Shown one piece after another: positions 4,058-60,800 of a stretch of DNA of 64,000 bases. Every line of letters begins with the position of its first letter. Positions within the stretch are counted from its first letter, which is position 1. The notes under the pieces were generated by a model. That model did no database searches, had not been told where the DNA came from, and worked only from the letters and a program-made list of their open reading frames with translations. The DNA is from a virus. The DNA lies in the IMG/VR virus record IMGVR_UViG_3300042864_001285; one strand, given 5' to 3'. The translations under genes were made by a program, and so were the position numbers.

Positions 4058-4807
4058 TTAAACGGATGCCATCATAATGGCGGGATACTTTACAAAACCA
4101 GTGGTATCTTTTTTGGCTTTGCCTTTGGCATATAAGCCGATAACGGAGCCTTTTGGATCCAGAAAACGGAGGTCCGACTCATCGCCATTAAATACTGGCA
4201 TACTCAGATAATCAGCCGGCATTGGGAGGGTCTTTTTAATACCAAACACCACGGCTACATTATAACCTTGGGCAATAGCCTTTTCAACGTCCGAATCATT
4301 ACCATCGGCGGCTGAGAATGTCAGGTGATAATTGGGATAATCGGCAATTTTACGTCCGAGAATCTTGGTATAATCGTAGAATTGAATTTCAGGGAATGCC
4401 ATGAAAATGTTTTTATATTCCACGCCATTACGGATGGCGGCATACTTTTCAAAGGCTAGGTCCGAAGTGCCATTAAGGCGAATCACTGGAACCATATTGA
4501 TTTTAGCCGATTGTTTAATAGCCAATTCAATATCCTTGACCAGCCATTCCATAAAACCGGTGCGAGCCTCGAAAAACATTTGGGTTTTGCGGATTCGAGC
4601 CTGCTGGATAATGTTGGTGGTTTCACCTTTTTTGAACATACCGCCACGGCCAGCAAGGTTCAGGCAGGCAGCCGTGCAACCTTTGGTCCGTTTGGCGCAG
4701 GTCTCAAAACCGGACAGGTCGGCTGGAGCGAGGTGCAGGATGTAGGTATTGTAACCCTGAGCCAGGCCTTTGAGGACCTTAGGGTTACCAGTGGAGAGTA
4801 AATTCAT
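4058..4807 (-). CDS. hypothetical protein with N-terminal Cys cluster (C-x6-GC-x3-C)
   Basis: The 249-aa ORF in the GC-rich island has an AAAGG SD. It is driven by the minus promoter at 4838-4865. Confidence 0.6.
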   Translation of the reverse strand: MNLLSTGNPKVLKGLAQGYNTYILHLAPADLSGFETCAKRTKGCTAACLNLAGRGGMFKKGETTNIIQQARIRKTQMFFEARTGFMEWLVKDIELAIKQSAKINMVPVIRLNGTSDLAFEKYAAIRNGVEYKNIFMAFPEIQFYDYTKILGRKIADYPNYHLTFSAADGNDSDVEKAIAQGYNVAVVFGIKKTLPMPADYLSMPVFNGDESDLRFLDPKGSVIGLYAKGKAKKDTTGFVKYPAIMMASV

Positions 4808-4837
4808 TTTTTGACCTTTGCTTGATTTGATGGTTGG

Positions 4838-4865
4838 ATTATACCAGAACCAGAGGAAATGGCAA
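4838..4865 (-). promoter_or_regulatory. sigma70-like promoter TTGCCA-N16-TATAAT (minus strand)
   Basis: The reverse complement reads ttgccatttcctctggttctggtataat. Confidence 0.55.
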
Positions 4866-4897
4866 CCATCCGTGGAATAGTTGACCGGCTGGCTGGG

Positions 4898-5140
4898 TTA
4901 TTGTACGCCATGATACCGCAGGAGGGACCGACCTTGGTACCGTACATGGGAGAGGAGCCGCCCACCCATTACATTTTCAGGTCGGACCAAGCCTTGGGAA
5001 GGATGCAACCAAAGCACCGTTCCATCGGCATACACCTGGAAAATAGCCTCTTGACCATGGTACACCTCGGCGTAGAATCCGCCACGGGCTTTCCGGAGGT
5101 AGGAGCGGCAGTGCCGGAGGACTATATGGGGCTGGTACAT
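4898..5140 (-). CDS. small basic protein (80 aa)
   Basis: It lies about 24 nt downstream of the minus promoter at 5172-5199, with AAAAGG before the ATG. Confidence 0.3.
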   Translation of the reverse strand: MYQPHIVLRHCRSYLRKARGGFYAEVYHGQEAIFQVYADGTVLWLHPSQGLVRPENVMGGRLLSHVRYQGRSLLRYHGVQ

Positions 5141-5171
5141 TTTGCAACCTTTTCAATTTACTATGGAATGG

Positions 5172-5199
5172 ATTGTACCAGAACCAGCGAGAATGGCAA
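5172..5199 (-). promoter_or_regulatory. sigma70-like promoter TTGCCA-N16-TACAAT (minus strand)
   Basis: The reverse complement reads ttgccattctcgctggttctggtacaat, nearly identical to the copy at 5436-5463. Confidence 0.55.
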
Positions 5200-5214
5200 C
5201 CATCCTTTGGATAC

Positions 5215-5231
5215 TTGACCGGATTGGTCAA
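5215..5231. promoter_or_regulatory. palindrome TTGACC-N5-GGTCAA (operator-like)
   Basis: This is a perfect 6-5-6 inverted repeat. The same motif recurs at 6197-6213 and 6565-6581. Confidence 0.4.
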
Positions 5232-5428
5232 CCTTTGGCATGGGAGAGACCAACATTCCGAAGGGTGGCAGCCTTGGCTCCAAGGTTGGCGACCGAATAC
5301 TTGGCACCAGCCGACCAAGTCCGTTCCGACCTACGGGGGCGGGCAGGCTTGCAAATGGTAACCAATACACCGTCCAGCAGGTATTGGGCTTGGACCTTGC
5401 GGTCGGTTGGTTGAATTGATTTTATCAT
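5228..5428 (-). CDS. small protein (about 66 aa), candidate leaderless
   Basis: The ATG is exactly 7 nt (CCATTCC) after the minus-strand -10 TACAAT. Confidence 0.3.
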   Translation of the reverse strand: MIKSIQPTDRKVQAQYLLDGVLVTICKPARPRRSERTWSAGAKYSVANLGAKAATLRNVGLSHAKG

Positions 5429-5435
5429 GGAATGG

Positions 5436-5463
5436 ATTGTACCAGAACCAGCGAGAATGGCAA
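5436..5463 (-). promoter_or_regulatory. sigma70-like promoter TTGCCA-N16-TACAAT (minus strand)
   Basis: It is a near-duplicate of the 5172-5199 element and is divergent to the plus promoter at 5505-5532. Confidence 0.55.
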
Positions 5464-5504
5464 CCAATAGTTGACCGGAAGAATGGAGAACTATTGTGCT
5501 ATAT

Positions 5505-5532
5505 TGCCATTCTGGCCTGCTATGATATAATA
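5505..5532 (+). promoter_or_regulatory. sigma70-like promoter TTGCCA-N16-TATAAT
   Basis: The sequence reads ttgccattctggcctgctatgatataat and lies upstream of the 5563 gene. Confidence 0.55.
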
Positions 5533-5562
5533 ACATCATTGTAAACGAAACGAAAGTGAAAA

Positions 5563-5799
5563 ATGAAAGTAGTACAAACGTATTCAAGTGTGGAATGTAA
5601 TGAGTATTCTGTATTCAATTCTGACAATGTTCAGGTTGCATACTATATTGAACACTATGTTCACCCAATTGATGAAGAAGTATTAGAAACCCCGGTCTTC
5701 GAGATATATTATGATTACAATGAAGAAGACGATGAATACGAAAGTTCTCTTATTTCTGAGAATTTTGACGATATTCAGGAAATAATCGATTCGTTCTAA
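5563..5799 (+). CDS. very acidic small protein (78 aa, D/E/Y-rich)
   Basis: It follows its own promoter, then a terminator-like hairpin. Confidence 0.5.
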   Translation: MKVVQTYSSVECNEYSVFNSDNVQVAYYIEHYVHPIDEEVLETPVFEIYYDYNEEDDEYESSLISENFDDIQEIIDSF

Positions 5800-5805
5800 T
5801 CTAAT

Positions 5806-5826
5806 AACCCAGCAACGGGCTGGGTT
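5806..5826 (+). terminator. stem-loop aacccagc-aacg-gctgggtt fused to the next promoter (PeSL-like)
   Basis: An 8-bp stem sits immediately 5-prime of TTGCCT-N16-TATAAT. Confidence 0.4.
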
Positions 5827-5831
5827 ATCTC

Positions 5832-5859
5832 TTGCCTTCCCTGCTGGTTCTGGTATAAT
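5832..5859 (+). promoter_or_regulatory. sigma70-like promoter TTGCCT-N16-TATAAT
   Basis: The sequence reads ttgccttccctgctggttctggtataat. Confidence 0.5.
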
Positions 5860-5952
5860 TGGTACCATGATTCGAAGCGGAAGGCGGGGTGGACGTGGAG
5901 GCTGGGCGTCATAATAATAACCCAGCACTCCGGTCAAGTATATCCAAAATGG

Positions 5953-5980
5953 TTGCCAAACCTGCTGGAACCTGTAGAAT
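5953..5980 (+). promoter_or_regulatory. sigma70-like promoter TTGCCA-N16-TAGAAT
   Basis: An ATG follows 7 nt after the -10. Confidence 0.5.
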
Positions 5981-5987
5981 CCAAGAC

Positions 5988-6200
5988 ATGATGAACACAA
6001 AAACCTACACTGTAGAACACCACGACAAAACCATGGACTTCCATGTGATCCGCTGGTCCCCATTGTCCAACGGTGTCCACACTGGCGAGTCCGTAGAACG
6101 GTTCCAATGTGAGGATGAGGCCATGGAAGTGGCTCGAATCCTGAACCAAGCCGAGGAACTGAGCCTGTACCTGGACCAGTCCTGCGAATTTGATAGTTGA
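5988..6200 (+). CDS. small protein (70 aa), candidate leaderless
   Basis: The ATG lies 7 nt after TAGAAT with no SD. Its stop overlaps the TTGACC palindrome. Confidence 0.4.
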   Translation: MMNTKTYTVEHHDKTMDFHVIRWSPLSNGVHTGESVERFQCEDEAMEVARILNQAEELSLYLDQSCEFDS

Positions 6201-6220
6201 CCATTCCGGTCAAGTATTGG

Positions 6221-6248
6221 TTGACAATACTACCGGAACCTGTATAAT
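6221..6248 (+). promoter_or_regulatory. consensus sigma70 promoter TTGACA-N16-TATAAT
   Basis: Both hexamers are perfect. It is preceded by the palindrome TTGACC-attcc-GGTCAA at 6197-6213. Confidence 0.65.
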
Positions 6249-6280
6249 CCAATCCATATTGTGAAAGAAAAGGAAAGAAA

Positions 6281-6568
6281 ATGTCCCGTTTAATATCTGA
6301 GCGCACCGCCCATGCATGGTTTGATGAGATGCTGGACGACTGTGAAGGTCCGGTGGAACTGTGCGGAATGACCTATTCCGCTTCCGAGGTCCTGCGTGAG
6401 GTCGACCCGGTAGCCTATCGGTGCGGTTTTAACGACTACGTGGATTCCTTGACCGAGGAAGACGTTTTCGTGGAAGGTCTCACCGAGGATGAGATGGAGA
6501 CCGAGGATGAGGATGACGGTCAGCCGGACGAAGCCCAAGAGTGGGCGGATTTTGATGCTGATTGTTGA
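6281..6568 (+). CDS. highly acidic small protein (95 aa; C-terminal EDEMETEDEDDGQPDEAQEWADFDADC)
   Basis: It has an AAAGGAAAG SD and sits directly behind a consensus promoter. Confidence 0.55.
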   Translation: MSRLISERTAHAWFDEMLDDCEGPVELCGMTYSASEVLREVDPVAYRCGFNDYVDSLTEEDVFVEGLTEDEMETEDEDDGQPDEAQEWADFDADC

Positions 6569-6588
6569 CCTGTCCGGTCAAGTATTGG

Positions 6589-6617
6589 TTGCCAGAACCT
6601 GCTGGTTCTGGTATAAT
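6589..6617 (+). promoter_or_regulatory. sigma70-like promoter TTGCCA-N17-TATAAT
   Basis: It is preceded by the palindrome TTGACC-tgtcc-GGTCAA at 6565-6581. Confidence 0.55.
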
Positions 6618-6688
6618 CGATACCATATTCAAAAGCACCTCTCCCGGTGGTGTTTTTCAACATGGTATTGCAATTGAAAGGAAAATTA

Positions 6689-7569
6689 TGATTGAAGTGA
6701 AGTTTGTCGGTGGTAAATACGTTGCCAACATCAATGGCAAGGTGGTCAAGCGTGCCAAAAAGGAACACATGGACTATGTGATCCGCAAGGCTACAGGTGC
6801 CACCGGTGGTGCTCCTGTCAATGTCAAGGAGTCCCGCTTCACCATCAACCAGCGGTTCGGCTTTGTCTCCGACATGGTCGCCATGTTGGTGAAAGGTGAC
6901 CAGTCCTCGGTGGTTGTATCTGGTCCCGGTGGTCTCGGCAAGTCCCATACCGTCACCAAGGCACTGAATGATGCCGGCATGAAGGATGTCACCCTCCTGG
7001 ATGAATTCGAGGTCGGTGGCAAAATCAACACCACCAAGTCCTACCGTGTTATCAAGGGCTACTCCACTCCAAAGGGCCTGTACCGTACACTGTATGAAAA
7101 CAAGGACGGCGTGGTTGTTTTTGACGACTGCGACTCGGTGCTGAAGGATCCAGTGTCTCTGAACCTGCTCAAAGGTGCTCTGGACTCCTACTCCCGCCGT
7201 GTCATCTCATGGCGTGCCGACATGAAGGATGACGAACTCCCACAATCCTTTGAATTCAAAGGCCGGGTGGTGTTTATCTCTAACCTGTCCTCTGATTCGA
7301 TGGACCAAGCCATCATCACCCGTTCGATGGCTGTTGACCTGACAATGACAACGGAGCAAAAAGTGGAGCGTATGCGCCACCTGGTGTCCCTCCCAGAGTT
7401 TATGCCTGAGTATTCGAAGACAGAAAAGTCCGATGCACTGGACCTGATTGACAACCTCCAAGATGAGGTGAAAGAGTTGTCACTCCGTACACTCATCCAG
7501 ACCACTAAAATCCGCAAGTCTGCTGGTGCCAAGTGGAAAGACCTTGCAGAATACACCATCTGCGGTTGA
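6689..7569 (+). CDS. P-loop NTPase / AAA-type ATPase
   Basis: It has Walker A GPGGLGKSHT, Walker B VVVFDDCD and the SD GAAAGGAAAA. Its own sequence is GC-rich. Confidence 0.65.
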
Positions 7570-7590
7570 TTTTTACTATAAAGGAATGAT

Positions 7591-7723
7591 TATGACAAAC
7601 ACTCAAGCATTTGGTTGGAAGTATATGGTGAATTGGTTGGCTCGGAGAGAGCATAAAATTCCTGATATTACATTCACCGCCCGCACCACACACAAAATGA
7701 AAGCGACTAATGAGCAAATTTAA
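7591..7723 (+). CDS. small hypothetical protein (44 aa)
   Basis: An AAAGGA SD precedes the ATG. Confidence 0.25.
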
Positions 7724-7931
7724 AGACTTGATTATCGATATCGAATCGTGCATCACCAATGGTGATACGTTTGAGGACATTATTCAATTCGTTATGACCT
7801 CCACTGGATGTGACGAAAAGACAGCCACGGACCTGGTGTTCGAGGTCGAGGGCAACCTGTGCATGGAGGAGGAACGGAACTATTATGAGGACCAAATAGT
7901 GCTGATTGAAGGATTCTCCGAAGAGGAGTGA
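7710..7931 (+). CDS. small acidic hypothetical protein (73 aa)
   Basis: The ORF is co-oriented with its neighbours. Confidence 0.35.
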   Translation: MSKFKDLIIDIESCITNGDTFEDIIQFVMTSTGCDEKTATDLVFEVEGNLCMEEERNYYEDQIVLIEGFSEEE

Positions 7932-7947
7932 TGTTGCGTAGATGAGA

Positions 7948-7986
7948 CACCTGGTGGTTGCCAGGTGGTCTTTTTTAGAGTACAAT
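7948..7986 (+). promoter_or_regulatory. PeSL-like unit: terminator hairpin cacctgg-tggttg-ccaggtg + T6, with the -35 TTGCCA embedded in the hairpin and -10 TACAAT
   Basis: Stem-loop, T-run and TTGCCA-N17-TACAAT overlap. No ORF follows for about 400 nt. Confidence 0.5.
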
Positions 7987-8295
7987 GGATCCATTGGTTC
8001 GAACAGCAAGACTGGGGGTGGACGTAGAGGCTGCCTGATGGTTTTCCAATGGGCATCCAGCACCACTCTGAGACATTCTGAGACCCACACAGAGCAAAAC
8101 ATTCCAAACCGTGCTGGAACCCACTGGAACCCATTGGAACGTGCGGAAACGTGCTGTCACCTCTGAGACACTCTGTGAAATTTTCAGGCGTTGGCAGCCA
8201 GCAACTAAGACTAAATAGCAACCCAACACTTCCGACACACCGCGACACATCCAGCGACCTACTGACTGACTGGTCAGTTATTAAGGTCCTCAAAG

Positions 8296-8338
8296 ATATC
8301 CACAACTTATCCACAACTTATCCACACACTTATCCACA
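8296..8338 (+). repeat. four direct DnaA-box-like 9-mers (ATATCCACA, TTATCCACA x3) phased 11-12 bp apart
   Basis: Three exact matches to TTATCCACA begin at 8307, 8318 and 8330, and a one-mismatch copy begins at 8296. Confidence 0.6.
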
Positions 8339-8381
8339 GTCTCTTTTATACAACAGACGAAGTTTTCCGCAAAATATTCCA

Positions 8382-8409
8382 TTGCCATTCCTACCAGTAC
8401 CGCTATAAT
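8382..8409 (+). promoter_or_regulatory. sigma70-like promoter TTGCCA-N16-TATAAT
   Basis: An ATG follows 7 nt (ACCATCC) after the -10. Confidence 0.55.
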
Positions 8410-8416
8410 ACCATCC

Positions 8417-8659
8417 ATGACACAAACAAACACACCCAAACAATTCATTCAAGTCTCCGCACATAAGGACTCCAATAACTTTGCTCACTGGAGCAACCTG
8501 AGCCTAATGGCAAGCATGGGTCTGAATGCTGAACAAGCCCTCCGCCGTCTCCAGGCTATGGCTGATAACTATGCACTGAACGGATACACCATCGAATGGA
8601 TTCGGAATGATTTTGATTCGTTTGATGAAGAAATGTATGGAGATTTATTCAATGTATAA
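8417..8659 (+). CDS. hypothetical protein (80 aa), candidate leaderless
   Basis: It follows the promoter directly. From here onward the sequence is AT-rich. Confidence 0.5.
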   Translation: MTQTNTPKQFIQVSAHKDSNNFAHWSNLSLMASMGLNAEQALRRLQAMADNYALNGYTIEWIRNDFDSFDEEMYGDLFNV

Positions 8660-8867
8660 AGTTTCAAAACAAAACTATTTTCCCACTCTGAATTCTGCAT
8701 TAGAATCAGAAGGATTATTGGAATCTTGGGAACTTAACTTCCCTCCGCTCTCTTACGATTCTTCTTTCTCATATACTTTTGATGATGGTTCAAAGCACGG
8801 TCATTATGTTTCTCTCTATCGGGATTCTGATGGTCGTTATGAGCGCCCTGTTCATTATAAGCGGTAA
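8652..8867 (+). CDS. hypothetical protein (about 71 aa)
   Basis: The ATG overlaps the upstream stop. Confidence 0.35.
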   Translation: MYKVSKQNYFPTLNSALESEGLLESWELNFPPLSYDSSFSYTFDDGSKHGHYVSLYRDSDGRYERPVHYKR

Positions 8868-8870
8868 TTA

Positions 8871-9002
8871 TGTTTGATTTTTTTGGCTTTATACTTAATA
8901 TACTTAAAGCGGTTTTCATTTTTCTTTTTGTATTCATGTGGACAATCTTTATAATTCCCATATTTTACCATTTATTCAAATTCTTATTTCTCAATACTTG
9001 AC
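8871..9002 (+). CDS. 43-aa hydrophobic peptide (MFDFFGFILNILKAVFIFLFVFMWTIFIIPIFYHLFKFLFLNT)
   Basis: It overlaps the upstream stop by TAATTATG and is predicted to have 2 TM helices. It is not in the ORF track. Confidence 0.3.
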
Positions 9003-9030
9003 CGGACGGATGGAGAACTTTTCTAGTAGG

Positions 9031-9058
9031 TTGCCATTCTCTACGGAACCTGTATAAT
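9031..9058 (+). promoter_or_regulatory. sigma70-like promoter TTGCCA-N16-TATAAT
   Basis: TTGACCGG occurs at 8998-9005, just upstream. Confidence 0.55.
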
Positions 9059-9090
9059 TCTCTCTATTGAAACACAACAAGGACTTTTTT

Positions 9091-9258
9091 ATGAAACAAT
9101 ACTCTGTTTATTTTGACGGTTCATTCATTGAAGCTACTGGTTATTTTGAATCAGTTTCCAAGGTTCGTGCATTCTTGAAACTCCGTTATTCTAATACTAA
9201 CGGAATGACATTTCAAGCGGTTTATCCTGCTCTTGAACAAACTGTTTATGAGGTTTAA
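9091..9258 (+). CDS. hypothetical protein (55 aa)
   Basis: The SD ACAAGGAC precedes the ATG. Confidence 0.4.
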   Translation: MKQYSVYFDGSFIEATGYFESVSKVRAFLKLRYSNTNGMTFQAVYPALEQTVYEV

Positions 9259-9259
9259 T

Positions 9260-9454
9260 ATGAAAATTACTACTGCGATTTCTATCCTCGAAAAGGAACG
9301 GAACTTTCTCTCTATTGGTTTTCTTGAAGTCTTACAGGACATTCAGAAACATGGTCGTATGGTCTATTCTGAAAAGACTATGGAAGCGTTTTCTGTCTTT
9401 ATGGACGAAGGTGCTAAACTCTTTGCAACCGTTGATGAAAATGAGGAAGAATAA
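9260..9454 (+). CDS. hypothetical protein (64 aa)
   Basis: It overlaps the upstream gene by TAATATGA. Confidence 0.4.
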   Translation: MKITTAISILEKERNFLSIGFLEVLQDIQKHGRMVYSEKTMEAFSVFMDEGAKLFATVDENEEE

Positions 9455-9586
9455 TGTTTGTTATATCTGAAAAATTTGGTTTTCTCTATGAAGTATTCTA
9501 TTCTGGTACTTTTCTTGAAGCATTCTATACTCTCTCTGATGCTGAAGAATATGTAAACTTCACTAAATTTGAAATGGAGAATTATT

Positions 9587-9808
9587 ATGGCGCATGAAGT
9601 TTTCCGTTTCTGGTCACGGAGAGATACTGCCGCAGTGTTCACTAACATACCAGTTCATCTCCTGGATGAGTTTCGGTCCTATTACCCCGGTAAATACAAA
9701 ATCCGTTACCGTGGTCCACGTTCCCATCGGAGGAATGATTCTTGGATGAACCGTGCATCATATTGTCTCATGAAGGATGCAAAAACATTCTCGGCTTACC
9801 GTTATTAA
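9587..9808 (+). CDS. small basic protein (73 aa)
   Basis: The ATG follows an AT-rich leader. Confidence 0.35.
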   Translation: MAHEVFRFWSRRDTAAVFTNIPVHLLDEFRSYYPGKYKIRYRGPRSHRRNDSWMNRASYCLMKDAKTFSAYRY

Positions 9809-9823
9809 TAGGAGTATATAAAA

Positions 9824-10017
9824 TGAACGAACGAATTCTAGAACTTGCTGATAAGGCTGTTGAAGACATGCCCTCTGGTCCTTGGAACATTCCTGATGAA
9901 TTTTGCAAAAAATTCGCCGAGTTGATTGTTCGGGAATGTGTCAATGTTGTTAGTAAAGCAACTGCTAGTCCAACTGGATATCAGGCTCTTATGAAACATT
10001 TTGGAGTTGAAGAATGA
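9824..10017 (+). CDS. hypothetical protein, paralog A
   Basis: It has an AGGAG SD. The FAELIVRE...KHFGVEE pattern is shared with the next gene. Confidence 0.45.
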
Positions 10018-10244
10018 ATGAAATAATGAAAGAACTTTCAAATATTGCATACATGAACCACATGGAGAGGAATCCACATTCTTCTTTTGGTCGCCGATAC
10101 GATTATGATAAAGAGTTCGCCGAGTTAATTCTCAAAGAAACTATCTCCGTCCTACAAAAACGGTTCATGGGTGATTTGAACCGTGAGGACATGGAAGTCC
10201 GTAGGTGTATTGCAGACGTAAAAAAACATTTTGGGATTGAATGA
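10014..10244 (+). CDS. hypothetical protein, paralog B
   Basis: It overlaps the upstream gene by ATGA. The FAELILKE...KHFGIE pattern matches the upstream gene. Confidence 0.45.
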   Translation: MNEIMKELSNIAYMNHMERNPHSSFGRRYDYDKEFAELILKETISVLQKRFMGDLNREDMEVRRCIADVKKHFGIE

Positions 10245-10408
10245 TGGACGAACAAACTAAAGAATATTTTGATTATCTCGTTGCACTACGGGATTCTGGT
10301 GCCACCAATATGTGGGGTGCGGCACCGTATCTGGAAACTGAATTCGGTATTTCTCGCACCGAAGCTAGGAAGGTTCTGGTTGCATGGATTGAATCATTCA
10401 ATAAATGA
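10241..10408 (+). CDS. hypothetical protein (55 aa; YLVALRDSGATNMWGAAPYL motif)
   Basis: It overlaps the upstream gene by ATGA and is not in the ORF track. I preferred it over the antisense ORF 10273..10458. Confidence 0.35.
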   Translation: MMDEQTKEYFDYLVALRDSGATNMWGAAPYLETEFGISRTEARKVLVAWIESFNK

Positions 10409-10423
10409 GAACTTCTAGCTGAC

Positions 10424-10452
10424 TTGCCAAGTACCAAGGACTCTGGTACAAT
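10424..10452 (+). promoter_or_regulatory. sigma70-like promoter TTGCCA-N17-TACAAT
   Basis: The sequence reads ttgccaagtaccaaggactctggtacaat. Confidence 0.5.
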
Positions 10453-10482
10453 AGACACACAAACACTTGAAAAGGAAATCTC

Positions 10483-10893
10483 ATGGGTACACGTTCACTC
10501 ACTTTTGTTTATACCGACCATTATGGCTCTACCACTGGTCCTGAGCCTATTATCAATATGTACCGCCAGTTTGACGGCTACCCAACTGGTCATGGCTCCG
10601 AACTATCCGCATTCTTGAATCAGTTTGAAGCCATCACCAATGGTATTCCTGTTGGTGATACACGGAAACTGGCTAATGGCATGGGTTGCTTAGCCGCCCA
10701 ATTGGTAGCACATTTTAAAGTTGGTGCTGGTGGTTTCTATCTCTACCCAGTTTCATCCGATGATTGTGGTCAAGAATATGAATACCACATTTACTCCGAC
10801 CGTATCACCGTTTTTGGTTGGGAACGTGAGCACCTGTTTACTGGTCCATGGGTTCAATTCACTAAATTTTGCACTGAAAAGGAGAATGCATAA
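10483..10893 (+). CDS. hypothetical protein (136 aa)
   Basis: The SD AAAAGGAAA precedes the ATG. Confidence 0.5.
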   Translation: MGTRSLTFVYTDHYGSTTGPEPIINMYRQFDGYPTGHGSELSAFLNQFEAITNGIPVGDTRKLANGMGCLAAQLVAHFKVGAGGFYLYPVSSDDCGQEYEYHIYSDRITVFGWEREHLFTGPWVQFTKFCTEKENA

Positions 10894-13023: not shown

Positions 13024-13217
13024 TGACAGAAAAACTTGAAATTGATTGTGAAACGGCTGACCGTATTACTTTGTTGGCACTCAAAGACCACAGAAAATAC
13101 CTTAAAAAGGAATTGAAACGCCACAGGAAGGGTGAATGGTTGCATCCAGAGGATGTTGTGTACAATACACAATTACTTGAAGCACTGGATGTTATTATTG
13201 ATTATTATGGTGGTTAA
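13023..13217 (+). CDS. hypothetical protein (about 64 aa)
   Basis: It overlaps the upstream gene by TAATG. Confidence 0.4.
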   Translation: MTEKLEIDCETADRITLLALKDHRKYLKKELKRHRKGEWLHPEDVVYNTQLLEALDVIIDYYGG

Positions 13218-13418
13218 ATGAAAGAGCCAATCGTAAAATCTGATATCAATCGACACCTTCATGCCATGCTAGGCCGTTCCGAACTGGTTGATGGATGGTG
13301 GGATTCACCAAACAAGGCATTTGATGGTAAAACACCTAATGAGGTGTACCAAACTGGTGCGGAAGGTCGGCTGAGTGTTTATCAATACGTGATTGGTTGT
13401 TCCGATGAGCATTGGTGA
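13218..13418 (+). CDS. DUF2384-like (Xre/MbcA/ParS antitoxin toxin-binding domain) orphan protein
   Basis: GWWDSPNKAFDGKTPNEVYQTGAEGRLSVYQYVIG matches the W..PN.aLgG.TP.e...t..G...V...L..i..G signature as I remember it. Confidence 0.45.
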   Translation: MKEPIVKSDINRHLHAMLGRSELVDGWWDSPNKAFDGKTPNEVYQTGAEGRLSVYQYVIGCSDEHW

Positions 13419-13490
13419 AATGTTGTAAAAAAACAACAAAAGGCAATCTTTATGGTTGCCTTTTTTTTATATATGGTATATAATAGAGTT
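13419..13490 (+). repeat. PeSL-like cassette, copy 1 (two hairpins + T-run + TTGCCT-N17-TATAAT)
   Basis: The hairpin aaaggcaa-tctttatgg-ttgccttt is followed by T8, then TATAAT at 13479-13484. It is nearly identical to the copy at 14895-14975. Confidence 0.65.
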
Positions 13491-13509
13491 TTCAATAATT
13501 GGACCTAAA

Positions 13510-14895
13510 ATGGCAAAACAACATAGTGTAACAGTAGCGTTGAATCGTACAATGAAACTTATTTCCACCAATATGCGGTATTTTAGGGAAAGAGTTGCTC
13601 TTGATACATCTTTTCAATCTGAAAGTCGATGGGAAGAAAAACAAGCCACAGCATATATGACCTCACTTATTACTGGTATGGCACCATCAAAAATTGTTGT
13701 TGCTAATATCAAAGAGTGTATGGACAAATGCATGGTAGAATCAAAAGATTATGAATACTACAATGATTGGCTTCAAAAAGGTTTTGAATGGATTTCCATT
13801 GACGGAAATAACCGTACTATCACAATCGACCAATATCTGAATGGTTCTGTTAAATTAAAGCATGGTCAATATCCATTGCCCAATGGTGTCGTTGATATCA
13901 ATGATAAGAATGACACATACAAAAAGCATCCAAAAATTCTTTTAGATTTTATTGAAAGTAGTGTCGAGATTACTGTTGCTGAGTATGTTTCTGCCACACG
14001 TAATGATTTGTCCAATATTTTCATTAACGTGAATGATGGTGTTTCACTGAATGCACAAGAATTACGTAATGCACGTTTGGTGCCATTTGCTGGTTGGGTG
14101 CGTGACACTGTAAAGAAACATAAGAATGAATTCCGTAAAGTATTTACCACGGAAAAACAAGAGAAGCGCCGATTGATTGACGATTTTGTTGTTGGTCTTG
14201 CCATCTATTCTTCTTTTGGTGCTGAACATGGTGTTGCAAAATCTGATAAAGATAATGCATATGAAGATGATTCTGTTGTATCAAAACAAACTAAGAATGC
14301 AAGTTCTAGTATTGATTCGATGTGCAAGATTGTCAAGAAACATGCAACAACTGGATTTAAAGACCATTCGACAATGTTGAATTTCTATATGGTGATTGAT
14401 TATCTCCGTAAAAACAATTTTGGTATTATCGATGACGCAAAACTATTTCAATGGTTTATGCGTACAGAGAATCGCCGCCTTGGAAGTAAAAAGATTCTGG
14501 TAGAATCTCCAAAATCAGGTGAACTCCGTACATATGCATCATGTTGCAATACAATGTCAAAGTTAGAATTAACGGCACGTTATAAAGCCATTATGGAAGA
14601 CTTTGAAATTATTGAAAGCGGTATCGTAGCACAACGGGACTCTGAACGCCTTTTCACACCACAACAAAGGTATGAAGCATGGGCACGCCAAGCTGGTGTA
14701 TGTCCAATAACTGGTGAACATATTCCAGAGGAGGAAATTAACGACCATGAAAAATGGGCGGCAGACCACATTGTTCCACACACCTTTGGTGGTCCATCCA
14801 AAGGTACCGATGGTACAAATAACTGCCAATTGGTTGCGAAGTCTGCCAATCTTAAAAAAGGTAGTAAAATGACACTCGGAGAAGTTCTGGTCTAA
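13510..14895 (+). CDS. DUF262 (ParB/GmrS-like NTPase) + C-terminal HNH/His-Me nuclease fusion; GmrSD-family-like or free-standing HNH endonuclease
   Basis: IDGNNRT matches the DGQQR DUF262 motif. The C-terminus CPITGEH...DHIVPHTFGG...NCQLVAKSANLKKG is an HNH pattern. I placed the start at the ATG at 13510, downstream of the promoter, rather than at 13456. Confidence 0.6.
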   Translation: MAKQHSVTVALNRTMKLISTNMRYFRERVALDTSFQSESRWEEKQATAYMTSLITGMAPSKIVVANIKECMDKCMVESKDYEYYNDWLQKGFEWISIDGNNRTITIDQYLNGSVKLKHGQYPLPNGVVDINDKNDTYKKHPKILLDFIESSVEITVAEYVSATRNDLSNIFINVNDGVSLNAQELRNARLVPFAGWVRDTVKKHKNEFRKVFTTEKQEKRRLIDDFVVGLAIYSSFGAEHGVAKSDKDNAYEDDSVVSKQTKNASSSIDSMCKIVKKHATTGFKDHSTMLNFYMVIDYLRKNNFGIIDDAKLFQWFMRTENRRLGSKKILVESPKSGELRTYASCCNTMSKLELTARYKAIMEDFEIIESGIVAQRDSERLFTPQQRYEAWARQAGVCPITGEHIPEEEINDHEKWAADHIVPHTFGGPSKGTDGTNNCQLVAKSANLKKGSKMTLGEVLV

Positions 14896-14975
14896 GTGTT
14901 GTACCAAAACAACAAAGGCAATCTTTATGGTTGCCTTTTTTTTGGTTTCTGGTATAATAGAGTCTTATTCAATGT
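14895..14975 (+). repeat. PeSL-like cassette, copy 2 (direct repeat of 13419-13490)
   Basis: The hairpin aaaggcaa-tctttatgg-ttgccttt is followed by a T-run, then TTGCCT-N16-TATAAT at 14931-14958. Confidence 0.65.
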
Positions 14976-14987
14976 GAAAGGCATGTA

Positions 14988-15239
14988 ATGCGTACAAAAC
15001 AACTGATTTGGGGTCTGAATAACACTCAGAAGTTCCGTGCTATCGTGAATGGTGTTGGCTTCATTATGAAGGTGAAAGACCTTGAAGATAAATTTGTGTT
15101 CACCACACAGAGGGTTGCAGTATGGAATGCATTGGCAACCTGTGCAAGAGAAAACGTTAGTGGTTTTGGTACCACATACACCTACTATGATGAAAAGATG
15201 GTGGCCACTAAGGTGGATATACAGGTGAACCTTCTTTGA
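14988..15239 (+). CDS. hypothetical protein (83 aa)
   Basis: It lies downstream of the copy-2 promoter. Confidence 0.45.
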   Translation: MRTKQLIWGLNNTQKFRAIVNGVGFIMKVKDLEDKFVFTTQRVAVWNALATCARENVSGFGTTYTYYDEKMVATKVDIQVNLL

Positions 15240-15347
15240 AGGATGGACATACCTACTTATGCAACAAACAAGAATGGAAAGAGGTTAATATGGATATAAA
15301 CTGGTACATGATTGTTGTCTCCATGCAACATGTCTACCAAAAAATGG

Positions 15348-15376
15348 TTGCCATCTGGCAAAAACTGTGATATAAT
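15348..15376 (+). promoter_or_regulatory. sigma70-like promoter TTGCCA-N17-TATAAT
   Basis: It shares the ggttgcc and tataataga motifs with the PeSL copies. Confidence 0.5.
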
Positions 15377-15390
15377 AGAAACACCTTGTT

Positions 15391-16554
15391 ATGGAGAACT
15401 TTATGAATCGTAATGCAAAAGCATTCGTCCAAGCCGCATCTGAGATTTTCGGTGAGAATGCAATTTTGAGCCGTGACCAAATTCAACGTGTCGTTGATGA
15501 ACGGTCTGTTCCTTATCCCTTCTGGTTTGTCACTCGCCAAGAGTTTCGTTCTGGTCGTGGCCAATACCTTCTTCCTAATGCACCAAACGCCGTGTCATGT
15601 GATGTTGCAGTTGAAGAACCTGCCGTTGTCGAATTGACACAAACTGCCACTGTCCATGTTCTCCGTCAAAAGAAACTTGAAGACCATGCAGATACTTCTA
15701 TCCCTGAAAAATACCAAGGCTATGTCCCCTTTGGTTTCTACAAAGACCTGACCTCCATTGTACTCTCACAGGAATTCTTCCCTGTGTTCATTACTGGTAT
15801 GTCTGGTAATGGTAAGACACTCATGGTTGAACAAGTGTGTGCCACACTCAAACGTGAATGTATCCGTGTGAACATCTCCGTTGAGACTGATGAATCTGAC
15901 CTGATTGGTGGTCCAACACTTATCGATGGTAACGTGGTGTACCGTGATGGTCCTGTGATGACTGCCATGAAACGTGGTGCAATTCTCTTGATTGACGAAG
16001 TTGACCGTGGTTCAAACAAACTGATGTGCCTTCAAGGTATTCTTGAAGGCAAACCTTACTTCAACAAAAAGTCTGGTGAATACATCTATCCAAAACGTGG
16101 CTTCAACGTTGTTGCAACTGCTAACACCAAAGGCCGTGGCTCTGAAGAGGGTCGTTACCTGTCACAGATTCTTGATGATGCGTTCCTTGAGCGTTTCAAC
16201 ATCACCGTTGAACAGGAATATCCTGAAGCCAAGGTTGAACTCAAGATTCTCAAACCATTGTTGAATGATGATGAGTTTGCCGAGAACCTTGTGAAGTGGG
16301 CTGACGTTATTCGTAAAACATTCGCCGAAGGTGGTGTTGATGAGATTGTCTCCACTCGCCGTTTGGTACACATTGCAAAGACTTATTCAATCTTCAAAGA
16401 CCGTTCGAAGGCAATTCAACTCTGTGTGAATCGTTTTGACCAAGAAACCAAAGATTCGTTCCTTGACCTGTACTCGAAAGTTGATATCAAAGTGGCGGAG
16501 GCAAACACTGCACCTGTGATGCCGACCTCACCTGATGATGAAGTGCCATTCTAA
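15391..16554 (+). CDS. cobS: CobS-like MoxR/AAA_5 ATPase
   Basis: Walker A GMSGNGKT and Walker B LLIDEVD sit within an AAA_5-like core. The length is 387 aa, typical of phage cobS. Confidence 0.6.
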   Translation: MENFMNRNAKAFVQAASEIFGENAILSRDQIQRVVDERSVPYPFWFVTRQEFRSGRGQYLLPNAPNAVSCDVAVEEPAVVELTQTATVHVLRQKKLEDHADTSIPEKYQGYVPFGFYKDLTSIVLSQEFFPVFITGMSGNGKTLMVEQVCATLKRECIRVNISVETDESDLIGGPTLIDGNVVYRDGPVMTAMKRGAILLIDEVDRGSNKLMCLQGILEGKPYFNKKSGEYIYPKRGFNVVATANTKGRGSEEGRYLSQILDDAFLERFNITVEQEYPEAKVELKILKPLLNDDEFAENLVKWADVIRKTFAEGGVDEIVSTRRLVHIAKTYSIFKDRSKAIQLCVNRFDQETKDSFLDLYSKVDIKVAEANTAPVMPTSPDDEVPF

Positions 16555-16643: not shown

Positions 16644-16961
16644 ATGCGTACTACCACTAAAATCAACCGTCACGAAAAAATTGCTTGCGTTATGCTCTCT
16701 GGCAAGCCTGTCTCTCCCGCTGAGATTGAGGCTTGCTTCAAAGGCAGTGACCAAGAAGGTGTTCTCTATCGCCTCTCCACAAACATCTACAACATCCGCA
16801 AAGATGGTGGAATTGTCCGTGTTTACAAAGATGGTCGAAAAGTGACTGCATATCAGTTGGTAAACTTTGACGAATTCTCTCCTGAAGGTCGTTATATCGG
16901 TAAAACTAAAACCGCACAAGTTGCCGTACAAGTAACCGAACAAGTTGCTGAGACTGTGTAA
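16644..16961 (+). CDS. hypothetical protein (105 aa)
   Basis: The SD AAAGGA precedes the ATG. Confidence 0.45.
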   Translation: MRTTTKINRHEKIACVMLSGKPVSPAEIEACFKGSDQEGVLYRLSTNIYNIRKDGGIVRVYKDGRKVTAYQLVNFDEFSPEGRYIGKTKTAQVAVQVTEQVAETV

Positions 16962-17572
16962 TGGCAATCAATACTCCTAATTGGGGTATTGACCCATATA
17001 CCGATATCAATTTCACATATAAAGATATTGATATAGACCACATGAATCATATCAAAAAGGTTTTGTTTGCAAAATTAAATTTATTGTTTTCTGGACTTCC
17101 AAGTGAATTGAGTGGCTTTCTACGTGACAAAGCAATTCTCACGGGTGGTGCAATTTCTTCACTCATGCATGATGAACCACCTAAAGACTATGATTTGTAT
17201 CTACAGGACAAAAATGACATAATGTTCTTCAAACAATATGTCAATGACATGAATAAAGATTTTATTCAGGACGCCGATGAAAAATATGTTGAAGTGCAGG
17301 TCGAAGGTAAATTGGTGACTGCAAATGCCACCACATTTAAAAATGGCCTTCAAGTGATTACACTTGCTACTGCTGATTCACGAAGCACATTTGATTTTGT
17401 GCATTGTATGCCGTGGTATAAAATTTCAAGCCACACACTTTACATTTCGAAGAAGCAATACAATGCAATTCTAAACAAACAATTGATTAAGAATCCGCAT
17501 AAAAATGCATTTGCACTTTCACATAAACGTATTGAAAAATACACTGCCAAAGGATGGAGTTTCCCTAAATGA
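16961..17572 (+). CDS. nucleotidyltransferase-fold protein (pol-beta superfamily minimal motif)
   Basis: LTGGAISS followed about 15 residues later by DYDLYL fits the hG[GS]...DhDh pattern. Confidence 0.4.
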   Translation: MAINTPNWGIDPYTDINFTYKDIDIDHMNHIKKVLFAKLNLLFSGLPSELSGFLRDKAILTGGAISSLMHDEPPKDYDLYLQDKNDIMFFKQYVNDMNKDFIQDADEKYVEVQVEGKLVTANATTFKNGLQVITLATADSRSTFDFVHCMPWYKISSHTLYISKKQYNAILNKQLIKNPHKNAFALSHKRIEKYTAKGWSFPK

Positions 17573-57881: not shown

Positions 57882-60800
57882 TCAAATTACACCTCTAAGT
57901 TATGCCAACACGTTTGGTGATTGGGTAACTACAACCAATAAAGTGTTGGCGGAAACCAATGATATTGGTGCGAACAATTATACCAAAAATACCGGTACTT
58001 TTATTATCAATTCCGCCGGAACTGGTTTACAAGTTGCAAATGATGCAATTGTTCAAGGTTCTTTTCAAGTTACTGGCACCGGTTCTTCTGCGACAATTCA
58101 GAATAACTTAACAGTTTCTCAGGGCACAATATTTGCGGCGAACACAATAGGTCTTGGACTTAACGTTGCAGGTGTGGCTAACATCGCAAACTTACAGGTT
58201 CTAGGGACGGGCTTGAATAATGCAGGTGGTCCTAGCCTTTATGTTGCAAATAATACTATCCTTAATGGTAACACAACACTTGCAAACAATTTAGTTGTTG
58301 GTGGTAATACAAGAGTTGCCAACATTATTTCAAATACTTGGGTACAATCCGCAACACTTTATACATCAACAGCTTATACACAAAACTTAACTGCAAACTT
58401 AGAAATTAATGCTGGTTGGGCAAACGTTGCTGGTGCAGTTAACGCAAGAACAATTTCAGCTAACGTATCTGTTAACACAGCATCATTATATACATCCAGT
58501 AATGCGTATGTAATGTCGTTGAATTCGAATTCATACGTTACCACATCTAATGTATATTCATTGACGGCTAACGTTGATAGTTTATCGGCTAACGTTTTTG
58601 TTAACACCGCCACGTTATATACGTCTAGCAATGCATATGTAATGTCATTGAATTCTAATAGCTATGTTACAACAACGGAGGCATTCACTACAAGGCTTCA
58701 AGTTGGTAACATGGTTGCCAACACTGGTATTACAACTGCTGGTCTTGTTGCCAATAACACCGTGGTAACAGCCGGTTTAGTTGCCAATAACACCGTGGTA
58801 ACAGCCGGTTTAGTTGCCAATAACACCGTGGTAACAGCCGGTTTAGTTGCCAATAATACGGTCAACACAAACTTCTTAAGTGCTAATTCATTTGTTAACA
58901 CAGCATCATTATATACATCCAGTAATGCGTATGTAATGTCATTGAATTCTAATAGCTATGTTACCACATCCAATGTATATTCATTAACAGCCAACGTTAA
59001 TAGTGTGTCAGCTAACGTTTTTGTTAACACGGCCACATTATATACGTCTAGCAATGCATATGCAATGTCGTTAAACTCCAACAGTTATGTTACCACAACA
59101 GAAACATTTACAACCAGATTACAGGCTGGTAATATTGTTGCTAATACTGGAGTTATAACAACTGCCGTTGTTGCCAACACGGGCGTTGTGACCGCTGGTT
59201 TAGTGGCTAATAGTACCATTGTGACCGCTGGTTTAGTGGCTAATAGTACCATTGTGACCGCTGGTTTAGTGGCTAATAGTACCATTATAACTGCTGCTCT
59301 GGTTGCTAATACTGGTGTTAATACAAATTTCTTGAGTGCCAATTCTTTTGTCAATACAGCTTCACTCTATACATCTAGCAATGCATATGTAATGTCGTTG
59401 AATTCGAATTCATACGTTACCACATCTAATGTATATTCATTGACGGCTAACGTTGATAGTTTATCGGCTAACATTTTTGTTAACACTAGAATTGTTTATG
59501 CGGATACGGCAAACATTAAAGGTATTACTGCTAACTCATACGTTAACACTGGCATTCTCTATGCTAATACCGTAGATTCAACAACATTGGCCGCCAATAG
59601 TTCCATCACATCACTTGGAACTTTGAACGTTGCTGGATCGGCAGTTTTGGCTGGTCAATTGAATGTAGATTCCGTTTCCGCCAACACAATGGTGAACACA
59701 GCATCATTATATACATCCAGTACTGCGTATGTAATGTCATTGAATTCAAATTCATATGTAACAACAACAGAATCATTCTCCACCAGAATTCAAGGTGGAA
59801 ATATTGTTGCTAACACTGGATTAATTGGTGGTACAATCACGGCTAACACTATACTATCTGGTGGTTCTGCTAACATTGTTGGTATTGCTAACGCAAACAC
59901 TATGAACACTGGCACATTGTCTGCGGTGACAACAGTTATTGGTGGTACAATCACTGCTAACACACAACTAAATGCCGATTCGGCTAACATTGTTGGCCTA
60001 CTGGATGCCGGCTCCGCTAGAATTGCTACGATAATTGCCAACACATCCTTAGTCGGTGGTACAATCACGGCTAATACCCAATTGAATGTTGGTTCAGCTA
60101 ACGTAGTTGGTTTATTAGATGCCGGCTCCGCTAGAATTGCTACGATAATTGCCAACACATCCTTAGTCGGTGGTACAATCACGGCTAACACCACACTCTC
60201 TGGTGGTTCAGCAAACATTATTAACGCTATCAATGCCGCTTCGGCTAATATTGTTGGTATTGCTAACGCAAACACTATGAACGCTGGTTCAATTTCAGCA
60301 GTCACACATGTATATACGAACAGATTAACATCCAATGGTATAGCTAACCTACAATCTGCAAACGTACAATATATTTCTGTTGTTGATAACATTAACGTAA
60401 AGTTCTTGACTGCTAATACAGACATTTACACTGCAAATATCAACGTAAATAACATCTTTGCAAACAACTCAATTATTGCTGGTAAAGATTTAACTGTTAA
60501 AGGTAACTTTGTTATCGATGGTGGCACAGTTTATAACTCCGCAGAGTTTGACTTGTACGGTGCAACACCAATCACAGCATCACAAACCGCACAATTCGGT
60601 GTACAACGACAGTTATCGACAACTTCTGGTATAACACCAACAAACTTTGTTGGTGATGGAACTACAACTGTAACATGTAACCATGCCGGTGCAGTTACAG
60701 TAGCCACTGGACAATCCATAACAGTTGCAGGTGCAACAGGTACACAACAAACTAAATTGAATGGTACTTGGACTGTAACAAATGTAAACTCGACTTCATT

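Follow-up and report, generated by a model that had tools for sequence, protein, structure and literature searches.

A PeSL-bounded presence/absence cassette encoding a GmrSD-like DUF262-HNH nuclease in an uncultured T4-like phage lineage

Promoter early stem-loops (PeSLs) are terminator-promoter cassettes of about 60-70 bp found in variable regions of T4-type genomes (PMC2839356, PMC4122927). In phage RB49, two PeSLs flank ORF192 where phi1 has one, and PeSL recombination as well as minicircles were demonstrated (PMC2839356). The two-versus-one pattern was extended to the T4/PST and KVP40/nt-1 pairs (PMC4122927). In the type IV enzyme BrxU, the D98-G-Q-Q-R102 motif positions the gamma-phosphate and its residue Q101 is needed for defence (PMC8565348); DGQQR is conserved in nearly 100% of GmrS sequences (PMC4619093). 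The combination of DUF262 with a Cas9-type HNH domain was remarked on in phage Sf-FS3, with no function assigned (PMC12284385). Here, we describe a 64,000-nt stretch of viral DNA (IMG/VR record IMGVR_UViG_3300042864_001285, hereafter the window) that contains a gene for a 461-amino-acid (aa) nuclease, in which a DUF262-like domain is fused to a C-terminal HNH domain. Two PeSLs bracket the gene, which some members of the phage population carry and others lack. We are highly confident that this is a PeSL-bounded presence/absence cassette and that the domain architecture is as described.

The cassette was delimited by comparison with close relatives. The 80 best IMG/VR loci were fetched via the cobS-like protein encoded downstream of the nuclease gene, and the window proteins were mapped onto them. 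Nine IMG/VR loci (L006-L013 and L032; cobS 91-97% identical at the amino-acid level) show the same gene order without the nuclease gene and with a single PeSL. In these empty loci, the upstream gene g66 is followed by the downstream gene g83 after ~97 nt. Several JGI contigs also show g66, a single PeSL and g83 without the nuclease gene. The closest empty relative, L008, has flanks 96-100% identical in nucleotides to those of the window. From the g66 stop codon to the end of the T-run, its single PeSL matches the left copy of the window at 100% identity; from the hairpin to the g83 start codon inclusive, it matches the right copy, again at 100%. The L008 PeSL thus joins the 5' half of the left copy to the 3' half of the right copy. 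The window and L008 therefore differ here by a single unit of exactly 1,475 bp, and the crossover lies within the shared 30 nt. An original prediction on this DNA had proposed a cassette moved by PeSL recombination, and expected related T4-like phages to lack the gene and to keep a single PeSL. The nine relatives bear this out, with one chimeric PeSL at the same junction. The features of the locus are listed below; all are on the + strand (ORF, open reading frame; UTR, untranslated region).

13218..13418, + strand: g66, upstream neighbour, ORF of 66 aa; left side of the insertion site, present in filled and empty genomes
13419..13509, + strand: left PeSL; small hairpin 13421-13438, terminator hairpin 13439-13463 with T-run to 13468, -35 box TTGCCT 13456-13461, -10 box TATAAT 13479-13484, nuclease 5' UTR
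13439..13468, + strand: copy 1 of the 30-nt repeat core, AAAGGCAATCTTTATGGTTGCCTTTTTTTT; perfect direct repeat and crossover zone
13469..14943, + strand: cassette unit of 1,475 bp, without counterpart in L006-L013 and L032; its limits can slide anywhere within the 30-nt core
13510..14895, + strand: nuclease gene, 461 aa; ATG at 13510, stop codon 14893-14895
14896..14987, + strand: right PeSL; small hairpin 14897-14914 (variant TGTTGTACCAAAACAACA), terminator hairpin and T-run 14914-14943, -35 box 14931-14936, -10 box 14953-14958, g83 5' UTR
14988..15239, + strand: g83, downstream neighbour, ORF of 83 aa; itself a PeSL-led module
15391..16554, + strand: cobS-like AAA+ ATPase gene (phrog_249, E 7e-109), conserved anchor gene

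The cassette contains a spacer, the -10 box, the 5' UTR, the 461-aa ORF, the 3' small hairpin and one hairpin core. It holds no second gene.

The direct repeat that bounds the cassette is perfect over 30 nt (13439-13468 and 14914-14943), with a start-to-start spacing of 1475. The two PeSL copies are identical in 45/50 columns at first and in 63/75 overall (84% over ~75 nt), and the flanking repeats of hairpin-terminator-promoter type put originally at about 60 bp were fairly described. A 27-nt probe with up to 3 mismatches allowed found exactly two copies in the 64 kb, compared with 0 in 100 shuffles. Each copy is composed, in this order, of a small hairpin TGTTGT-N6-ACAACA, an 11-pair terminator-like hairpin, a run of eight T and an extended -10 box. 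The -35 box TTGCCT sits in the 3' arm of the 11-pair hairpin and the TG-extended TATAAT is located 16-17 nt 3' of it, the extended -10 sequences being TGGTATAAT and TGGTATATAAT in the two copies. Both copies fold more stably than shuffled sequence (z -4.7 and -3.8; 0/200 shuffles as stable). About 20 further TGGTTGCCA-N17-TATAAT promoter elements (at least 20), many of them with hairpins, lie between 4.8 and 21.4 kb. With a terminator hairpin and a sigma-70-like early promoter in a variable early region, the flanking elements correspond to PeSLs as published. Scanning the locus and the bacterial-looking hairpin contigs described below against Rfam gave no match at the gathering threshold, only sub-threshold, terminator-driven ones.

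A second PeSL-like class is found at window positions 4800-10500, on both strands and in at least 10 copies. Here, a TTGACC-loop-GGTCAA hairpin is followed by TGGTTGCCA-N17-TGGTATAAT. The copies diverge from ~position 5480, and one pair (6191-6226 and 6559-6594, 89% identical) brackets a 368-bp unit. The promoter-like pattern scan also returned two near-identical 114-nt units in tandem at 60035-60260 (+ strand), probably a coding repeat in a tail-fibre-like gene.

The filled state was found on a second background. Three metagenome contigs (L001-L003) encode a 99%-identical protein and have both PeSLs and the same 1,475-bp unit. This unit is 97% identical to that of the window in nucleotides, whereas g66 is ~84%, the kinase gene 69-97% and cobS 90% identical. 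Along the alignment, identity changes abruptly at the left PeSL. The flanks of L001 resemble those of the empty L011 and the flanks of the window resemble those of the empty L008, so that presence and absence are polymorphic on two backgrounds. The higher identity of the cassette indicates that it is younger than its flanks. A peptide-pattern search of IMG/VR revealed no close relative of the nuclease, and the nuclease gene was not found within 7 kb of cobS in any of the 80 best IMG/VR cobS loci. IMG/VR gave empty sites only.

These comparisons bear on whether the two-PeSL state could be ancestral. The empty relatives would then be independent deletions between direct repeats, and the gene a vertically inherited, long-term resident. 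Such a deletion yields exactly the chimeric single PeSL that is observed, and excision is the event experimentally demonstrated for PeSLs (PMC2839356). Homologues are also located next to cobS in many distant T4-like phages, as described below, which suggests that the family is old in this region. However, the two filled backgrounds are nested among at least five empty ones (L006/7, L008, L009/10, L011, L012, L013/32), and the cassette differs by 3% between them where the flanks differ by 10-16%. Distant relatives hold the gene at other positions and without repeats. Moreover, the same hairpin with the g83 promoter precedes g83 homologues in the more distant L015 and L182, where the nuclease gene is absent. 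We therefore consider an ancestral two-PeSL state quite unlikely. The sequence comparison speaks for a spreading cassette rather than for many independent losses, even though deletions certainly occur as well.

The hairpin module is found beyond the filled and empty sites. In the more distant L004, the g66 homologue lies directly before the cobS leader. The nuclease unit and the PeSL-g83 unit are both missing there, and a 40%-identical g83 homologue is found at another place. The exact hairpin core with 11 identical upstream bases is present in L172, L173, L177 and L181 (for example L173 7919-7990), whose cobS is 65-68% identical. In these loci it has a gene for a 340-aa RNA-ligase-like protein on one side and a 60-aa gene on the other, and the promoter/-10 region differs. 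From these sequences, the hairpin module is a portable homology patch common to lineages and gene contexts. In L012, L013 and L015, the 5' UTR changes to another sequence (...aaccatacacagcaacaaagga...) 3' of the conserved TATAATAGA, which makes the PeSL -10 box a recurrent breakpoint. The g83 coding sequence is 98% identical in L013 and only 40% identical in L012.

A dedicated site-specific recombinase acting on the hairpins, as in an integron-like cassette system, might account for such a distribution instead of general homologous recombination. The authors of the PeSL studies left this possibility open (PMC2839356, PMC4122927), and here at least 13 loci, with flanking genes of 40-100% identity, have an identical core, which also recurs in the other gene context. 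But the terminator and -35 roles fully explain the conserved core, and a homology of 45/50 is amply sufficient for recombination of the T4 type, for which <50 bp is enough (cited in PMC2839356). No integrase or recombinase family match was found among the window proteins scanned, which represent part of the ORFs. We regard such a recombinase as very improbable.

The same 25-nt hairpin and T-run, without promoter, was also observed in three bacterial-looking contigs of ~45% GC: L170 6330-6354 (- strand), L174 374-398 and L171 680-704 (- strand). One of these hairpins adjoins a gene for a 948-aa SNF2 helicase; another is located between a SpoU-type methyltransferase gene and a 98-aa gene beside gatB/gatA. 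They could be host terminators or result from convergence. A scan of GTDB species genomes for the hairpin core gave no match, nor did a scan of JGI contigs with the cassette-specific promoter for the cassette in another context.

We propose that homologous recombination within the 30-50 nt common to the PeSLs converts the filled state into the empty one and vice versa. The route would be either excision and integration of a minicircle, a step presumed here by analogy with RB49, or unequal exchange between genomes. The predicted circular or recombinant junction of the cassette is ACCAAAACAACAAAGGCAATCTTTATGGTTGCCTTTTTTTTATATATGG, and the predicted circular or tandem junction sequence is ACCAAAACAACAAAGGCAATCTTTATGGTTGCCTTTTTTTTATATATGGTATATAAT. 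The terminators on both sides insulate the cassette, a complete early transcription unit, such that its gain or loss would leave the transcription of g83 and cobS unchanged.

The nuclease itself is composed of three domains. As originally read, the ORF at 13510-14895 encodes 461 aa and carries an IDGNNRT motif, at residues 97-103.

Residues ~30-190: ParB/DUF262-like domain; motifs FQSExRW 35-41, DGNNR 98-102 and NxGxxLNxQELRN 175-187
Residues ~190-370: helical middle domain
Residues ~380-455: Cas9-type HNH domain; D419, H420, N438 and N447

The C-terminal part fits the Cas9-type HNH domain (PF13395), with a beta-beta-alpha-metal fold, a D-H pair and two asparagines. The Pfam HNH_4 match scores 22.7 bits for a cut-off of 22, and the family profile matches Cas9 HNH domains in the PDB at 6.6e-9. 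The N-terminal part has the DUF262 (ParB/Srx) fold that defines this half of GmrSD family members. It is matched by the PADLOC profile of NsnA, a DUF262 protein (E 1.2e-12, residues 14-253). Among 48 family members, HNH is matched in 44/48, HNH_4 in 41/48 and GmrSD_N in 18/48 (best E 1.4e-9). An AlphaFold2 model calculated on the 48-homologue alignment has a pLDDT of 89.6 and a pTM of 0.81, and Foldseek searches agree with the profile picture. Pfam, PHROG and NCBIfam scans of the protein returned DUF262 and HNH alone, without NUMOD, IENR1 or helix-turn-helix (HTH) modules. No DUF1524 match was found, even at E<=1.

Twelve residues are invariant in the 48 sequences, which are 30-99% identical: D98, G99, N100, N101, R102, Q183, E184, N187, D419, H420, N438 and N447. 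F35 and W41 of FQSExRW are also invariant, and Q183, E184 and N187 belong to the second DUF262 motif. Of the 42 nucleotide differences between the window and L001 genes, 37 concern third codon positions, and no more than 3 amino acids change, which indicates purifying selection on a functional gene. DGNNR is found in 186/262 family proteins of at least 400 residues and DGQQR in one. The profile searches suggested by the original prediction were thus divided: HNH_4 is above cut-off, the DUF262 match is sub-threshold for this sequence alone and backed by the family, and DUF1524 is absent. Likewise, the announced resemblance to type IV GmrSD/BrxU enzymes holds for profiles and structure and fails for two defining features, DUF1524 and DGQQR. 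The roles put forward for the protein, namely homing, exclusion or modification-dependent cleavage, are candidate functions. Because of the two missing features, we name the protein GmrSD-like rather than GmrSD. The predicted structure and the sequence support a GmrSD plan, with a ParB-type NTPase domain (NTP, nucleoside triphosphate), a helical domain of DNA-binding type and a His-Me nuclease. A packaging-associated HNH role was considered and rejected: T4-type terminases use none, and the gene is dispensable in close relatives.

The family is large. A word-indexed search gave 104 homologues, and an exhaustive profile search at least 307 clusters at 50% identity (E<=1e-30), nearly all of 440-500 aa and matching end to end. 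Every readable family context is a T4-like phage contig. A scan of 185,579 prokaryotic species genomes with family-specific peptide patterns confirmed no relative, within the reach of these patterns. No paralogue of the nuclease was found elsewhere in the window.

Many homologues are located close to cobS. Those of 41-50% identity (among L096-L131) lie 0.1-1.4 kb downstream of a cobS-like gene in 21/23 IMG/VR loci with enough upstream sequence, and the same arrangement and distance are found in L086, L088 and L091. In the clade of the window, the nuclease gene is upstream of cobS, at two different positions. Around the homologues of L004, L086, L088 and L091, a search for flanking direct repeats gave only short, chance-like matches, and the PeSL bracket therefore appears specific to the lineage of the window. 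The original prediction had named as a case against it the same gene standing without repeats at a conserved syntenic position. Repeat-less homologues near cobS do exist, but at variable positions, and the gene is missing from the nearest relatives. From these sequences, the family is old in the cobS neighbourhood, sporadic and locally mobile. The linkage to cobS may be due to a conserved order of genes, to a functional link or to a homing target. In L088 (1-2503) and L091 (1-3618), a DruA-like protein (PF14236, Druantia) and a 736-760-aa ORF are encoded just upstream of the cobS-like gene.

A homing target would imply a free-standing, intronless homing endonuclease. The HNH domain would cut a site in or near cobS of nuclease-less phages and double-strand-break repair from the nuclease-carrying genome would copy the gene with flanking markers, the PeSL duplication reflecting only the original insertion. 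The protein is indeed an HNH nuclease with an intact active site, and close relatives differ by its presence or absence at the same intergenic site, with filled and empty alleles on two backgrounds. Absent from the 80 best IMG/VR cobS loci, the gene is found, where present, within ~3 kb of cobS on either side and at four or more positions, as homing genes sit beside their target. The 97% identity of the cassette between backgrounds whose flanks are 84-90% alike, and a mosaic patch in g66 beside the insert, fit this mechanism too. Yet the columns that discriminate filled from empty sites number 0 around the site (g66, PeSL and g83) and 2 scattered in cobS, as for random pairs, with only two independent filled lineages to compare. 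The filled right PeSL preserves the sequence of the empty site in full from the hairpin core downstream, and insertion therefore destroys no target there. The DNA-binding modules typical of phage homing enzymes were not detected, and an NTPase-type sensor domain is invariant instead. The strength of purifying selection and a family of 307 or more full-length clusters contrast with the usual decay of selfish endonucleases, an argument that is not decisive. We consider homing unlikely but still a serious rival.

As a whole, we favour a PeSL-bounded, self-contained early cassette that carries a GmrSD-like nuclease, and give this explanation a probability of roughly 0.6; that the nuclease would act against host or rival-phage DNA is its less certain part. 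Host RNA polymerase would transcribe the nuclease gene early in infection. The N-terminal domains would bind DNA, and NTP binding or hydrolysis would license cleavage by the HNH domain, after the example of BrxU, GmrSD and SspE. The target, either the host chromosome or a co-infecting phage, would carry or lack a feature that sets it apart from the phage genome. The product is probably an active NTP-dependent DNA endonuclease. Because the cassette comes without a partner gene, such as one for an immunity protein or a methylase, self-protection must come from the specificity of the enzyme. This leaves either type IV logic, in which a feature of foreign DNA is recognized, or a rare specific site, as in homing. 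That the nuclease is directed at host or competitor DNA rather than at homing is a serious possibility, though short of an even chance. We lean towards it because no polymorphism specific to filled genomes was found around the site or within cobS, because the domain is of sensor type and because the family is large and conserved. In its most complete form, the proposal is that virulent aquatic T4-like phages carry a type IV-like enzyme, an NTP-gated DUF262(DGNNR)-HNH nuclease expressed early against marked host or competitor DNA and traded as a promoter-terminator minicircle cassette. We put this forward tentatively, as a rather doubtful combination.

Several observations weigh against the favoured explanation. 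All functional roles of the family rest on sequence and predicted structure. The Pfam GmrSD_N/DUF262 match of the window protein scores 23.4 bits (E 7.5e-5), under the curated cut-off of 33.2, and the domain call draws on the 18/48 GmrSD_N matches of the family. Both glutamines of DGQQR are asparagines in D98-G-N-N-R102, the counterpart of the BrxU motif, and nucleotide handling may differ. No DNA-modification gene was identified in protein scans of the 64-kb window, and nothing therefore indicates which feature the enzyme would sense. A free-standing homing endonuclease would likewise be compatible with the near-constant position by cobS and with the sporadic distribution. Finally, g66 of the window is mosaic with respect to L008 (86-94% identity over 13200-13399). 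The cassette may therefore have reached this lineage through ordinary recombination in the flanks with a donor that was already filled, and not through a minicircle. The junctions read the same for gain and for loss, and the direction in this lineage is our interpretation of the sequence comparisons.

The source of the window is a T4-like myovirus, which encodes gp59, gp32, gp6, gp53, a T4_baseplate-family protein, PhoH and the cobS-like ATPase. Compared with 50,697 phage records at the nucleotide level, the locus gave only short cobS matches, with 77-79% identity, and no close cultured relative. Judged by gp6, the isolates closest to the phage are Methylophilales phage Melnitz and Pelagibacter phage HTVC008M (36-42% amino-acid identity). 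The phage belongs to an uncultured aquatic T4-like lineage. The neighbourhood of the nuclease gene is an early accessory region, in the variable (hyperplastic) early part of the genome, with many small ORFs, insertions and deletions relative to close relatives, and a Gad2-like gene. Homologues of g66 adjoin the insertion site in L001-L013. The g66 protein shows a weak match to Xre_MbcA_ParS_C, the Xre/MbcA/ParS antitoxin C-terminal domain (23.4 bits for a cut-off of 24.5). A toxin-antitoxin pair made of the nuclease and g66 was rejected, g66 being equally present in genomes without the nuclease. A tiny ORF (MDINWYMIVV..., ~27 aa) at 15287-15370 (+ strand), which overlaps the cobS promoter and has a conserved counterpart in L004 (MEINWYKLFF...), may represent a true micro-gene or simply a conserved leader. 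Two genes 3' of cobS, a 203-aa gene (16961-17572, + strand) has orthologues in L001, L002, L168 and L169 with a precomputed Pfam match to Gad2 (PF26128, anti-Gabija). A Pfam scan of the window's own 203-aa protein gave no match, to Gad2 or otherwise. If the Gad2 match is real, the nuclease cassette sits within a counter-defence neighbourhood.

The mechanism of PeSL shuffling is known, and so is the GmrSD-like type of enzyme; here, the mechanism carries an uncharacterised phage nuclease family. This will not surprise specialists, and the family is well delimited and worth testing. The locus provides an unusually clean natural before/after pair for PeSL shuffling, outside the cultured coliphage, Yersinia-phage and vibriophage pairs, with flanks up to 100% identical, a crossover within 30 nt, two backgrounds and a hairpin module reused in a third gene context. 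PeSL exchange becomes testable in metagenomic reads and environmental phage populations. The locus also delimits a large single-chain DUF262-HNH family (at least 307 clusters) seen only on phage-like contigs, and all members examined keep the nucleotide-binding and nuclease active-site residues. If the enzyme senses modification, lytic phages would use bacterial type IV restriction logic for their own ends, and a compact NTP-gated HNH nuclease would be added to the enzyme toolbox. If homing is true, the family would represent a new architectural class of homing endonucleases.

Compared with the PeSL cassettes of RB49/phi1, T4/PST and KVP40/nt-1, the locus shares a terminator hairpin and a sigma-70-like early promoter in a variable early region, two PeSLs versus one in a close relative, a crossover inside the shared element and transcriptional insulation. 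It differs by its stem, AAAGGCAA...TTGCCTTT instead of the G/C-N type, by the location of the -35 box inside the 3' arm of the hairpin and by the extra small upstream hairpin in the repeat. Minicircles were demonstrated for the RB49 type, whereas the window cassette is known from sequence alone.

Free-standing homing enzymes of T-even phages (Seg, GIY-YIG; Mob, HNH) are likewise intergenic, have their own transcription, are sporadic among close relatives and stand beside a conserved gene. In contrast with them, the window protein has no NUMOD, IENR or HTH module and carries a DUF262 NTPase-type domain; no target-site polymorphism was detected, and its family is large and conserved. The DUF262-related proteins Menshen NsnA, SspE and DndB act with partners (NsnB/C, SspABCD and DndCDE, respectively) or carry DUF1524, whereas the gene described here is solitary and has a fused HNH domain. 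In particular, neither NsnB (ABC ATPase) nor NsnC (effector) is found next to it, its neighbours being g66, g83 and cobS. Two proteins of T4-like cyanophages, S-SSM7 gp035 and Sf-FS3 ORF32 ('HNH endonuclease', 'HNH Cas9-type domain'), share the full-length arrangement with 25% identity over 92% of the length. They are very distant, are not beside cobS, have no reported PeSL bracket and are likewise functionally uncharacterised. Finally, the single-chain type IV enzymes GmrSD and BrxU belong to a family marked by NTP-stimulated cleavage of modified DNA (hmC, glc-hmC or 5mC). They share the catalytic logic D-H...N...N with the window protein, and the helical middle domain of the latter is of the kind that binds DNA in SspE, NsnA and GmrSD. 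Unlike GmrSD and BrxU, which combine DUF262 with DUF1524, the protein described here has a Cas9-type HNH domain (HNH_4/HNH) and DGNNR in place of DGQQR, is ~120 residues shorter, and is encoded by lytic T4-like phages rather than in bacterial defence islands.

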